Of a DNA stretch of 64,000 nucleotides, positions 38,339 through 41,547 are shown piece by piece (within the stretch, counting starts at the first letter, position 1; every line of letters starts with the position of its first letter). The DNA is from Candidatus Multivorans sp. (GTDB lineage: Bacteria > Acidobacteriota > Thermoanaerobaculia > Multivoradales > Multivoraceae). The translations under genes were made by a program, and so were the position numbers. The stretch lies in contig OZ245033.1 in assembly GCA_965224025.1 (NCBI GenBank), positions 704,001 through 768,000 of the forward strand. The letters run 5' to 3'. The notes below the pieces were generated by a model that was not told where the DNA came from, searched no databases, and saw only the letters and a program-made list of their open reading frames with translations.

Positions 38339-39424
38339 ATGACGACCACCGAAACGACACCGTCCAGACCCCTCCGAATCCTCCTGGTTCGCCTTTCGGC
38401 AATCGGCGACTGCCTGCACGCGGCGCCGGTGGCGGCGGCGCTTCGCCGCGCGCATCCGGGGGCGTTCATCGGCTGGGCGATCCAGGAGCCTGCCGCGACC
38501 CTCTTGCGGGGCTGCCCCGGCGTCGACTGCTTTCATGTCTACCCTCGCCGGGGCCGCGGCATTGCGGCGCGGCTTGAGGCGTTCCGCCGCTTTCGCCGCG
38601 AACTCAGAAGCTGCCGCTACGACGCTGCAATCGATGTCCAGGGTCTCACGAAGAGTGGGCTGGTGGCTTGGTGGAGCGGCGCCCGGCAGCGAGTGGGCTT
38701 TCGCGGTGGACCGGCGATGGGCAGCCGGGAGCTGAATGCCCTGTTTCTGAACCGACGCTTCGCCGTTGACCCTGCCGTGACCCACGTCGTCGACCGCAAC
38801 CTGGCGCTGGTCCGCGCCTCGGGATTGGCCGGCAAGAAAGCCCCGATCGCGGAGTGGCGGCTGCCCGACTACGCAAAGCCCGAGGCCCTCGTCTTTCTCG
38901 AGCGCCACGGCCTGGGCGCCGGTGGCTATGCGGTGGTATCGCCCGGGACGATCTGGCGCACGAAGCACTGGCCGCCGGGCCATTTTGCGGCCGCGGTGCG
39001 GCGCTTGGCGCGGGAGCGCGGCTTGCCGGTGGTCGTCGTCTGGGCGGGCGAGGAGGAACGTCGGGTGGCGGAGCAGATCGTGGCCGGCGCCGGGGATGGC
39101 TGGCCGATCCTGCTCGCACGGCCGACCGATCTGCGCGAGCTGGCGACCCTGTTGCGGCACGCGGCCCTGTTCCTGGGTTGCGATTCCGGCCCAGCCCATC
39201 TGGCCGCTGCACTCGACGTGCCGTGCGTATCCGTGTTCGGGCCGACGGATCCTGCCCGCAACGGCCCCTACGGGCCGCGGTCCATCGCCGTGCAGATCGA
39301 CCAGCGGCTGGAATGCCAACCATGCTGGCGGCGCACCTGCAGCCGCGGCGACTTCGCGTGTATGGAGCGGTTGGATGCCGACCAGGTCGTGGAGGCTTGC
39401 CTGAGAAAGCTCGACACGGCCTAG
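38339..39424 (+). CDS. GT9 ADP-heptose:LPS heptosyltransferase (WaaC/WaaF-like)
   Basis: ILLVRLSAIGD, DVQGLTKS, K.WP, G.DSGPAHLAAAL, FGPTDP. Confidence 0.9.
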   Translation: MTTTETTPSRPLRILLVRLSAIGDCLHAAPVAAALRRAHPGAFIGWAIQEPAATLLRGCPGVDCFHVYPRRGRGIAARLEAFRRFRRELRSCRYDAAIDVQGLTKSGLVAWWSGARQRVGFRGGPAMGSRELNALFLNRRFAVDPAVTHVVDRNLALVRASGLAGKKAPIAEWRLPDYAKPEALVFLERHGLGAGGYAVVSPGTIWRTKHWPPGHFAAAVRRLARERGLPVVVVWAGEEERRVAEQIVAGAGDGWPILLARPTDLRELATLLRHAALFLGCDSGPAHLAAALDVPCVSVFGPTDPARNGPYGPRSIAVQIDQRLECQPCWRRTCSRGDFACMERLDADQVVEACLRKLDTA

Positions 39425-39690
39425 CTCGCGCGCGCCGCTTCGCGGCCGCGCGTCTGATGCCGGCCGGAGGCCGGCGTACCTGTACCTTTCTCGGGTGGAT
39501 TCTGGTGGGTCGTTGAGAGAGGTGGAATCGACCAGTAGCCGTCGCGGCTGCGGTAGCTGTGGGAAACCGGCTTGCCGGTTTTCCAAGGTCCGGCGGGAAA
39601 CGGTCTGCCGTTTTCCGCGGGACCGGCAGCTTCCGCAGCCGAGACCGCCGGTCGGTTGCGTCTCCGGCCTGCCGGAGTCACTGAAGGAAA

Positions 39691-39845
39691 GTCGGCAAGC
39701 AGCCAGGAGCGACCACCGGCGTACTGTGCTTCGAGCACCTGGCTGGGACCCGTGCCCTGGCTGCTTCGCCGCGTTGGACGCCCAGTGGAGAGTCAGTGCC
39801 TTAGAGCACCAGTACAGGTACGGGCAGGCAACGCGGCATGCCGAC
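39691..39845 (+). ncRNA. Bridge RNA of the IS110 element (target- and donor-binding loops)
   Basis: Outer stem gtcggca/tgccgac; stems aagcagccagg/cctggctgctt and gccgcgttg/caacgcggc enclose guides matching the target and the donor junction; 5' end uncertain. Confidence 0.88.
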
Positions 39846-39880
39846 CAGGCAACACTACCGCAAGGGAGAAGGAGGACGAG

Positions 39881-41134
39881 ATGACCAGGACGTGGTTCGT
39901 CGGCGTGGACTGGGGGTCCGAGACCCACCACGTGTGTGTGCTGGATCGGGACGGCAAGGTGAGGGGGGAGCGGGCGTTCGACCACAGCGGCAAGGGACTT
40001 GCCGCCATGGCCGACTGGCTCCTTGGACATACCCGACCGACGTCTCCGGACGAGATCGGCGTCGCCATCGAGGTGCCGCACGGACCGGTGGTCGAGACTC
40101 TCCTGGAGCGGGGCTTCGCCGTGCATTCGATCAACCCCAAGCAGCTCGACCGCTTCAGGGACCGCTTCTCCGTCGCCGGCGCCAAGGATGACCGCCGCGA
40201 TGCACGGGCGCTCGCCGCCGCGCTTCGCACCGACCCCGAGTGCCTGAACCGCGTGCAACCATCCGATGCAGCCATCGTGATGCTGCGCGAGGTGTCCCGC
40301 GGCCGCAAGCAGTTGGTCGGCCAGAAGAACCGCCTGGAGAACCAAGTCCGCGACCAGATCTGGCGCTACTACCCGCAGTTTCTCGCCGTGGTCAAGAACG
40401 AGGTGTCGGCGCCCTTCGCGCTGGCCTTGTGGCGACTGGCGCCGACCCCCGGCAAGGCTCGACGGCTGCGCGAAGCCACGCTCGCCAAACTGCTCAAGGA
40501 ACACCGCATCCGGCGCCTGACCTCCGCCCAACTGCGCGATCAACTGCGGGCCGAGCCGATCGCCGTTTCCCCGGACACCGTTAAGGCCGCCGTCGAACAC
40601 ATAGGACTCCTCCGGCCGGTGCTCGACACCGTCTGCCGCCAACTCGCCGACGCCGACAAGCGGCTGGAGCGGATGACCCGCGCACTCGAGGCCCCGGCCC
40701 AACGGGAAAACGACGACGACTCCCCTAAGCCGAGCGACGCCGCCATCCTCAGGTCGCTGCCCGGACTCGGCAAGGTCGGCCTCGCCACCCTGCTCTCCGA
40801 GGCCGATCAAAGCCTGGGCCGCAGAGACCACGAGGCACTGCGTTGCCTCTGCGGAGTGGCGCCGGTGACCGTCAAGTCCGGCAAGAAGCTCATCGTCATG
40901 CGACGACTCGCCGCCAACGAACACCTCAGCGACGCCGTCTATCACTGGGGACGAGTCGCCATCCAGCACGACCCGATCAGCCGCGCCAAGTACGACGCCA
41001 TGAAAGCCCAGGGAAAGACGCACGGACGCGCCATCAGACAACTCGTCGACCGACTCCTCGGCGTCGCCTGCGCCATGCTCCGAGACCGAACTCTCTTCGA
41101 CCCCAACAAGCGATGCCATGCCCAGGTCGCATGA
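39881..41134 (+). CDS. IS110-family recombinase/transposase (417 aa)
   Basis: RuvC-like DEDD (VGVDWG, AIEVP, KDDRRDA); Tnp20-type region LPGLG...GVAPVTVKSG with the catalytic Ser; RBS aaggagg. Confidence 0.96.
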   Translation: MTRTWFVGVDWGSETHHVCVLDRDGKVRGERAFDHSGKGLAAMADWLLGHTRPTSPDEIGVAIEVPHGPVVETLLERGFAVHSINPKQLDRFRDRFSVAGAKDDRRDARALAAALRTDPECLNRVQPSDAAIVMLREVSRGRKQLVGQKNRLENQVRDQIWRYYPQFLAVVKNEVSAPFALALWRLAPTPGKARRLREATLAKLLKEHRIRRLTSAQLRDQLRAEPIAVSPDTVKAAVEHIGLLRPVLDTVCRQLADADKRLERMTRALEAPAQRENDDDSPKPSDAAILRSLPGLGKVGLATLLSEADQSLGRRDHEALRCLCGVAPVTVKSGKKLIVMRRLAANEHLSDAVYHWGRVAIQHDPISRAKYDAMKAQGKTHGRAIRQLVDRLLGVACAMLRDRTLFDPNKRCHAQVA

Positions 41135-41292
41135 CCTCCCTGACCCGCAGCAGCCTCCCCAAAACACACTTGCTAAAGGGTGGAGAGTCCCAGCGGTAGG
41201 GCGTCGGCGTGGCGGGAACCTCTACTACAGACATCATGGCTCGCTGCGGTGGATACGGCTCGGGCGGGCCACTGCTTGGCATACTTCGATCG

Positions 41293-41547
41293 ATGCACGA
41301 CGAACCCGCCGCCGATCCGCCGCTAATCCGCCCGCCGGCGTTCGACCGGATCACTCTCCGGCTGCTTGTGGCGGCGCTGGTCGCCGGTGCGCTGACGGTG
41401 CCGATCGTCATGTCTTGGCGTGACTTCAGTTGGCTCATGGCGCTCTCCAGTGCCGCCGGTATCGCTCTCCTGATCTTCTTCAGCGGCCGTGCCGCGCGGG
41501 TCCTGAACTTCGAGTGGCGCCGGCCGCCCTTCGAGCGGGAGGACTAG
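41293..41547 (+). CDS. Small two-TM hypothetical membrane protein
   Basis: Two hydrophobic helices; ends 3 bp before the NUDIX gene. Confidence 0.6.
   Translation: MHDEPAADPPLIRPPAFDRITLRLLVAALVAGALTVPIVMSWRDFSWLMALSSAAGIALLIFFSGRAARVLNFEWRRPPFERED

Follow-up and report, generated by a model that had tools for sequence, protein, structure and literature searches.

The window analysed in this work is a stretch of 64,000 nucleotides from Candidatus Multivorans sp. (Acidobacteriota), and the features considered here are a gene for an IS110-family recombinase, a structured RNA upstream of this gene, and the ends and flanks of the mobile element in which both are located (Table 1). The recombinase matches two Pfam families, DEDD_Tnp_IS110 (PF01548; 1.5e-32) and Transposase_20 (PF02371; 1.1e-12), and aligns with two solved structures, those of the IS621 transposase (8wt6, E 2e-11) and, in the Tnp domain, of ISCro4 (9t56, E 1.5e-09). 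Residues D10, E64, D104, D107 and S333 of the protein lie opposite residues 13, 62, 104, 107 and 243 of the IS621 chain, which, with the chain offset of 2, correspond to D11, E60, D102, D105 and S241, the catalytic residues given for IS621 in the available part of PMC11208158. By alignment, the protein combines the N-terminal DEDD RuvC-like domain of the IS110 group with a C-terminal Tnp domain containing the catalytic serine.

Table 1. Features of the IS110-family element and its insertion site (positions in the window; t and d, target and donor positions)
Feature	Positions	Strand	Basis
Element, one 1710-bp copy	39481..41190		ends of other copies in the same genome
Recombinase gene, IS110 family, 417 aa	39881..41134	+	Pfam domains and structure alignment
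Left target (LT), gccggcgta	39470..39478	+	flank common to other genome copies; identical to left target guide 39716-39723
LT positions t6-t7, TA	39477-39478	+	
Left core copy, CC	39479..39480	.	copy ends
Element left end = right donor arm (RD), tgtaccttt	39481..39489	+	identity among copies starts here
Long hairpin module, about 140 nt	39523..39660	+	inverted repeat, fold
Bridge RNA core, target-binding and donor-binding loops	39697..39837	+	covariance model R1, 151.6 bits; consensus fold
Left target guide (LTG), ccggcgtaC	39716..39724	+	string; LT sense plus first core base
Target-loop internal hairpin (helix 2), gtgc ttcga gcac	39726..39738	+	consensus fold
Right target guide (RTG), gctggg	39742..39747	+	complementary to top strand CC+cagc (41189-41194)
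Target-loop handshake guide, AC	39748..39749	+	complementary to donor d7 = T (41188) and d6 = G (41187)
Left donor guide (LDG), gtggagagtC	39785..39794	+	sense of right end 41180-41189
Donor-loop internal hairpin (helix 6), gtgc cttaga gcac	39796..39809	+	consensus fold
Right donor guide (RDG), gtacagg	39812..39818	+	complementary to CC+tgtac (39479-39485)
Donor-loop handshake guide, UA	39819..39820	+	U39819 : t7 = A39478; A39820 : t6 = T39477
Element right end = left donor arm (LD), gtggagagt; d6-d7 = GT	41180..41188	+	string and copy ends
Right core copy, CC	41189..41190	.	string and copy ends
Right target (RT), cagc	41191..41194	+	string and copy ends
Target of the window's element, with core: GCCGGCGTA-CC-CAGC			

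Boundaries, copies and target site of the element

The gene and the RNA belong to one copy of a repeated IS110-family element with the core dinucleotide CC on both sides. A DNA search of the window's own genome retrieved about 15 further copies with 97-100% identity, and the alignment of these copies (9 left ends and 15 right ends) was used to set the ends of the element. The identity breaks off exactly at ...GCCGGCG(C/T)A-CC-TGTACC... on the left and at ...GGTGGAGAGT-CC-C(A/G)G(C/T)... on the right, where the hyphens set off the core. Because the other copies in the same genome end there, the junctions were assigned as target, CC and element. The element starts with TGTACC... and finishes with ...GGAGAGT, has no inverted terminal repeats, and is bounded by the same core dinucleotide on either side; among the copies in the same genome, every left end that could be read also has CC separating the flank from the element.

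The left target corresponds to the 3' foot of a hairpin repeat that is rich in G and C (gccggc-nnnn-gccggcgca-cc-cagt). About 70 sites of this repeat are scattered genome-wide, at times in tandem (e.g., G000:C1 298624 and 298661); in the window (39425-39478), the insertion target is located 55 bases past the stop codon (39422-39424) of the upstream gene. The genome retains 70 unoccupied 13-mers of the form CGGCG(C/T)ACCC(A/G)G(C/T). The proposal that every perfectly matching site is occupied was rejected, as one CCGGCGTA-CC-CAGC site and two near-perfect sites are empty. Neither a joint of the right end to the left end nor a contig with an empty site was found in the Logan contigs of four public runs, which are short over the repeat and blind to rare forms. 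At the right junction of two relatives (L089 and L093), the right end and CC are followed directly by a left end (GTGGGGAGT-CC-TGTAC...), which represents either copies arranged head to tail or a donor junction that has become fixed in the genome. A scan of positions 39350-41300 with the sigma-70 consensus yielded 0 promoter-like sites in the linear copy.

Predicted bridge RNA with target-binding and donor-binding loops

Within the window, the covariance model R1 has a single match, which is located upstream of the recombinase gene in the left end of the element. The consensus fold of 22 distinct RNAs from the relatives, which align over their full length, predicts a structured non-coding RNA with two internal loops. 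In the longer alignment, the RNAalifold consensus contains 33 base pairs, 11 of them with changes on both sides; in the trimmed alignment, 30 pairs remain, with 98.0% of the 657 cells paired and 11 double-changed pairs. None of 500 shuffled alignments scored as high, and slid controls were 28-44% paired. Within helix 6, a C:G pair is replaced by U:A in 7 of the 22 sequences. A search of positions 39300-41400 against Rfam returned no bridge-RNA family; a microRNA match in the same region (E 0.75) was dismissed as a chance hit caused by the long hairpin.

The four guide segments of the RNA correspond to the target flanks and to the ends of the element itself, and co-change with them in the relatives. 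The left target guide is written in the sense of the left target and therefore pairs with the bottom strand. The right target guide follows the right flank lineage after lineage (GAAAAGG with CC-TTTTC, CAAATGG with CC-ATTTG, GGGGAGG with CC-TCCCC, GACAAGG with CC-TTGTC, and GGGAGGG with CC-CTCCC), and for this reason the assignment of the guides is considered sound. For the donor loop, two plasmid relatives have the right donor guide GAACAGG together with the left end TGTTC. The target loop would read the genomic site GCCGGCG(T/C)A-CC-CAG(C/T), and the donor loop would read the joined ends of the element, ..GGTGGAGAGT-CC-TGTACC...

Elements of the IS1111 group were considered as another possible affiliation. 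As reportedly described by Siddiquee et al. in 2024, these elements are RNA-guided members of the IS110 family whose guide RNA (seekRNA) contains target and donor guide segments and is said to be encoded downstream of the recombinase gene. The position of the only R1 match, upstream of the gene, led us to reject this assignment for the window's element.

Proposed handshake bases in the window's copy

In IS621 from Escherichia coli, handshake guides were defined as bases 81-82 and 166-167 of the 177-nt bridge RNA, and their pairs with the exchanged DNA strands were resolved by cryo-EM (PMC11208158, available part of the text). A previous reading of the window, made from the sequence only, had proposed that both loops of the RNA contain such bases, that is, that each loop is extended by a dinucleotide matching the junction formed by recombination. 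Both extensions were confirmed. The right target guide together with AC (39742-39749, gctgggac) has the reverse complement gtcccagc, which is the right junction at 41187-41194, and the right donor guide together with TAcg (39812-39822, gtacaggtacg) has the reverse complement cgtacctgtac, which is the left junction at 39475-39485. AC and UA are located directly 3' of the core-pairing GG, in the place of the IS621 handshake bases. Each of them is complementary to positions 6-7 of the non-cognate DNA, as in the IS110 group, and neither is complementary to the cognate DNA. Before exchange, AC forms no pair with the target ..TA and UA forms no pair with the donor ..GT; AC is unable to pair with its own target because t6-t7 is TA, and the donor dinucleotide d6-d7, GT, pairs with both of its bases. 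In the window's copy, pairing is gained only after strand exchange, with 0 of 4 pairs before and 4 of 4 pairs after it, as the sequence-only reading had stated.

These observations support the handshake interpretation. We assign a probability of about 0.85 to the reading of the region as the bridge RNA of an IS110-group insertion sequence, in which the bases 3' of the core-pairing GG are handshake guides. By analogy with the IS621 work, the pairs would form on the exchanged strand and would set the direction of the reaction. Once the recombinase had cut and swapped the top strands, AC would pair with the arriving ..GT of the donor and UA with the arriving ..TA of the target, and the pairs gained would drive the reaction in the direction of insertion. 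Both junctions of the integrated copy would already contain these pairs, which should hold back excision.

The complementarity could also be a product of chance, or a by-product of GC-rich repetitive sequence, without any handshake function. It involves only 2+2 bases, the pattern was sought after the junctions had been seen, the target-loop pair is beyond the reach of covariation, and one lineage (L112, L116 and L119) has no donor-loop handshake pairs. Nevertheless, we consider this explanation very improbable. Given the base composition of the bridge RNA, the joint probability of AC and TA at two fixed places, P(AC) x P(TA), is 0.0016, with no correction for the free choice of the pattern looked for; the bases occupy exactly the positions defined in IS621; and the first donor-loop base follows t7 through four pair types (see below). 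The covariation in relatives is a stronger argument than the composition figure and holds for one of the four bases.

The match of the donor loop had been proposed to run four nucleotides into the target sequence, with the caution that the last bases may belong to a stem. In the window's copy, the longer match is present, since c39821 and g39822 face the target C and G, but it is not conserved: in relatives that share the target GGGGTC, the places of 39821-39822 are taken by CC, AA or AC, and no covariation is seen. The caution was well placed, as the two extra bases are outside the conserved guide and G39822 can pair with C39783, a possible fourth base pair of the basal stem of the donor loop in the single-sequence fold.

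Covariation of the first donor-loop base with the target

Covariation of the handshake dinucleotides with the junction bases across homologs had been suggested as a check of the handshake interpretation, and its outcome differs between the two bases of the donor loop: the first base follows t7, whereas the second base does not covary. The comparison was based on 80 related loci from a scan of one genome per species, with proteins 56-93% identical and with hosts from Candidatus Multivorans, Thermoanaerobaculia, Vicinamibacterales, one Azospirillum, and one gammaproteobacterial bin. A model search of the phylum (151 genomes) matched 4 genomes including the window's own and in this way added 3 genomes. 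Among the 81 loci examined (80 and the window), 79 were parsed, and two with a replaced or divergent target loop (L076 and L106) were left out.

In these 79 loci, the first handshake base forms 78 Watson-Crick pairs and one G.T pair with t7 of the actual left flank. When reduced to 29 distinct combinations of guide and flank, the set contains 28 Watson-Crick pairs and one G.T pair, whereas the permutations gave 12.5 on average and none of 10000 reached 28. The relatives are not independent and, therefore, this result exaggerates the support. What can safely be said is that, whatever the tree, the pair of the first base and t7 has changed on both sides at least three times, since four Watson-Crick pair types are represented: U:A in Multivorans and Thermoanaerobaculia, G:C in most Vicinamibacterales, C:G in L072-74 and L105, and A:T in L113, L114 and L117. 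In the extended set of 93 insertions, composed of the 79 loci, 6 more loci from the three added genomes (L112, L113, L114, L116, L117 and L119) and 8 more copies from the window's own genome, there are 89 Watson-Crick pairs, one G.T pair and three mismatches.

Pairing before exchange is absent in the window's lineage and occurs in several of its relatives. A handshake G can wobble with the donor T7 before exchange in 42 of the 93 insertions. In L113, L114 and L117, the handshake AG faces the flank CT and forms A:T7 and G:C6; the A:T7 pair also forms with the donor before exchange, and so there is no net gain. In L112, L116 and L119, AA faces the target CC, so that one pair (A:T7) forms with the own donor before exchange and none forms after it. 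These three loci and L133 come from one genome (G088); their AA runs opposite to the handshake rule, yet three copies exist.

Five more distant relatives are encoded on plasmids (L137-L141; 45-54% protein identity). Their handshake and flank dinucleotides are GA/CC in L137, GG/CC in L138 and L139, GC/TC in L141, and UC/TC in L140, where the handshake base does not pair with t7 of its own site. L140 and L141 are close to each other and differ both at position 7 of the left target guide (A versus C) and in the handshake base (U versus G); therefore, the two have changed together.

The latter case bears on another explanation, according to which the covariation reflects an RNA-RNA contact within the bridge RNA, between the donor-loop handshake base and position 7 of the left target guide. 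This guide and the target top strand have the same sense, so that a base that complements t7 always complements position 7 of the guide as well, and in L140 the handshake base matches its own guide and not the actual flank. However, one or two pairs between two loops occupied by DNA are unlikely to be stable, and the cryo-EM structures of IS621, as described in the available text, put the handshake bases on the exchanged DNA strand. We regard such a contact as extremely improbable, and pairing of the first base with the exchanged target strand is retained as the preferred explanation.

Second donor-loop base and target position 6

For the second base, the comparison gives a different picture, and an alternative reading has about even odds in our assessment. 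It holds that only the core-adjacent base of each loop is a handshake guide. A39820, c39821 and g39822 would then be fixed scaffold with an incidental match to the target, which arose when a C-to-U change at position 6 of the left target guide opened sites with T at t6 to the sublineage. In agreement with it, the second base is A in 28 of the 29 distinct combinations, whatever the base at t6. Its 12 Watson-Crick pairs are close to the permutation mean of 11.2, with 5542 of 10000 permutations as good, and over the 93 insertions 43 Watson-Crick pairs stand beside 50 mismatches. The free variation of the extension bases against one same target and the pairing of G39822 with C39783 in the single-sequence fold, both described above, point in the same direction, and so does the published covariation across IS110 orthologues, which the available part of PMC11208158 gives at position 7 only, for both substrates.

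The window's own genome and its closest relatives indicate how the match may have arisen. All 16 RNA copies in the genome carry UA, and the readable left flanks are CA in 6 of 9 cases (an A-C mismatch) and TA in 3 of 9 cases, including the window's. The left target guide is polymorphic among the same 16 copies: GUA, found in 6 of them, fits T6 sites and, by wobble, C6 sites, and GCA, found in the other 10, fits C6 sites only. One GCA copy (829093-) is located at a TA site. All relatives with 65-76% protein identity have GCA in the guide and CA in the flank, and GUA is confined to the window's sublineage and L031-L034. A39820 pairs in the window's copy because its site has T where most sites have C. 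The most plausible reading is thus that the A:T6 pair of the window results from a recent C-to-U change in the guide together with the choice of site, and that A39820 is not an adapted handshake base.

On the other side, the second handshake position of IS621 pairs after exchange and its reprogramming alters efficiency, according to the available published text, and for this reason even an incidental A:T6 pair may still act. G at the second base is always accompanied by C at t6 (L095, L113, L114, L117, L138 and L139), which is a hint and no more. Finally, T6 sites are occupied in 3 of 10 cases and C6 sites in 6 of 69 cases, small numbers for which the left target guide is a confounder; the difference (Fisher p = 0.028 for 15-mers and 0.14 for 12-mers) is too weak to lean on.

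A tentative and rather unlikely extension of these observations is that the second base serves as a fixed 'latch', with the variation at t6 setting the reversibility of insertion copy by copy, and that the C-to-U change in the left target guide (6 of 16 copies) opened the T6 sites to the element. If so, insertions at T6 sites with 4 of 4 pairs, including the window's, would be harder to excise than insertions with 3 of 4 pairs at the abundant C6 repeats. The latch would then represent a natural retargeting of a guide that alters the handshake strength and thereby the balance of insertion and excision.

Target-loop dinucleotide

The target-loop dinucleotide is AC in 85 of the 93 insertions, AU in 7 and GC in one, and each of these is able to form Watson-Crick or wobble pairs with the donor ..GT. 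All 93 insertions and the five plasmid relatives share the donor end ..AGT, although the left end does change in the latter. Since the donor ..GT is invariant, the target-loop AC is outside the reach of covariation. The assignment of AC as a handshake guide is proposed from its position, its complementarity and the published IS621 data. AC and the donor ..GT are merely both conserved, and a structural role for AC would explain this equally well.

Comparison with characterized IS110-family systems

The element resembles IS621 in most of its organization. Both systems have a recombinase with a DEDD RuvC-like domain and a serine Tnp domain, and an RNA encoded in the left end upstream of the gene; in both RNAs, each of the two loops has a left guide in sense orientation and an antisense right guide spanning the core, with a hairpin between them. 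Positions 6-7 of the other substrate are complementary to the two bases that follow the core-pairing bases on the 3' side, with covariation at position 7 only (for IS621, within the part of the publication available), and the target is a repeated hairpin-like sequence. The differences concern the core, which is CC here and CT in IS621; the right target guide of only 6 bases; the recombinase of 417 amino acids, which is distant from its IS621 counterpart (E 2e-11, two short stretches); and the presence of the hairpin module (about 140 nt) within the left end. The number of handshake pairs rises from 0 to 4 in the window's copy, as deduced from sequence alone, whereas wild-type IS621 goes from 1 pair before exchange to 3 pairs after it (PMC13626964, available text). 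The same source shows that handshake bases tune insertion versus excision and states that the pattern is conserved among IS110 elements.

The second system for comparison is IS622/ISCro4, which was used in human cells (bioRxiv 10.1101/2025.05.14.653916; PDB 9t56). Its design rule, as given in the available part of the preprint, requires that donor and target differ at position 7, and this rule is obeyed here (T versus A); the layout of the loops and of the handshake bases is also the same. In contrast, IS622 and ISCro4 are close relatives of IS621 with a CT core, whereas the window's element belongs to a separate subfamily, found here in Acidobacteriota and alphaproteobacterial plasmids.

The element is a clean natural example of a known handshake mechanism. 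Both the handshake guides and the covariation at position 7 were already published (PMC11208158 and PMC13626964), and relatives of the window's element may already be covered by the per-ortholog covariation tables of PMC11208158. The additions made here are small: a subfamily with a CC core, a clean 0-to-4 configuration, and a pairing constraint that applies, in this subfamily, to the core-adjacent base only. They provide an independent natural confirmation of the handshake rule far from IS621, with another core, an acidobacterial host and relatives on alphaproteobacterial plasmids. They also sharpen the rule for this subfamily, where the core-adjacent base alone is constrained and the second base is fixed and pairs or does not pair depending on the site. 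For the development of tools, the subfamily offers a second core (CC) and ready natural pairs of guides and targets. For the genome itself, the element represents ordinary mobile-element biology.

Neighbouring and variant elements

The long hairpin module is nested in the left end between the tip of the element and the bridge RNA. Solo copies with about 87% identity are located at positions 2474161, 3672578 and 4048787 of G000:C1, and another copy, at 1301954, is partial. The Multivorans and Thermoanaerobaculia relatives contain the module and the Vicinamibacterales relatives lack it; it may be a small mobile or repeat element.

Three relatives (L113:1355-1441, L114:1365-1477 and L117:1662-1774) have an extra stem-loop, similar to a target loop, upstream of the usual two. 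The left guide of this stem-loop, CACCGCACTCC, matches the real insertion site, and the loop that aligns with the target loop of the window specifies another left target, GATGCATT. These RNAs may be three-loop bridge RNAs with two alternative targets; the second target has three one-mismatch sites in one genome, and the single-sequence fold is no better than those of shuffled sequences (z -0.74). The two loci left out of the covariation analysis look like recombinant or decayed copies. In L076, an unrelated sequence has taken the place of the 5' half of the target loop, the 3' half of this loop and the donor loop are retained, and the right flank fits the guide of another lineage; in L106, the upstream region is divergent.

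A second IS110-family element of about 1.66 kb is found outside the window in about 15 copies (e.g., G000:C1 225120-226780). It is inserted in another repeated site, CTAGG-AG-nnTGCGCGGCAG, many of which are left empty, and its left end contains sense copies of both the target (CTAGGAG) and the right end (ATGCAAG).
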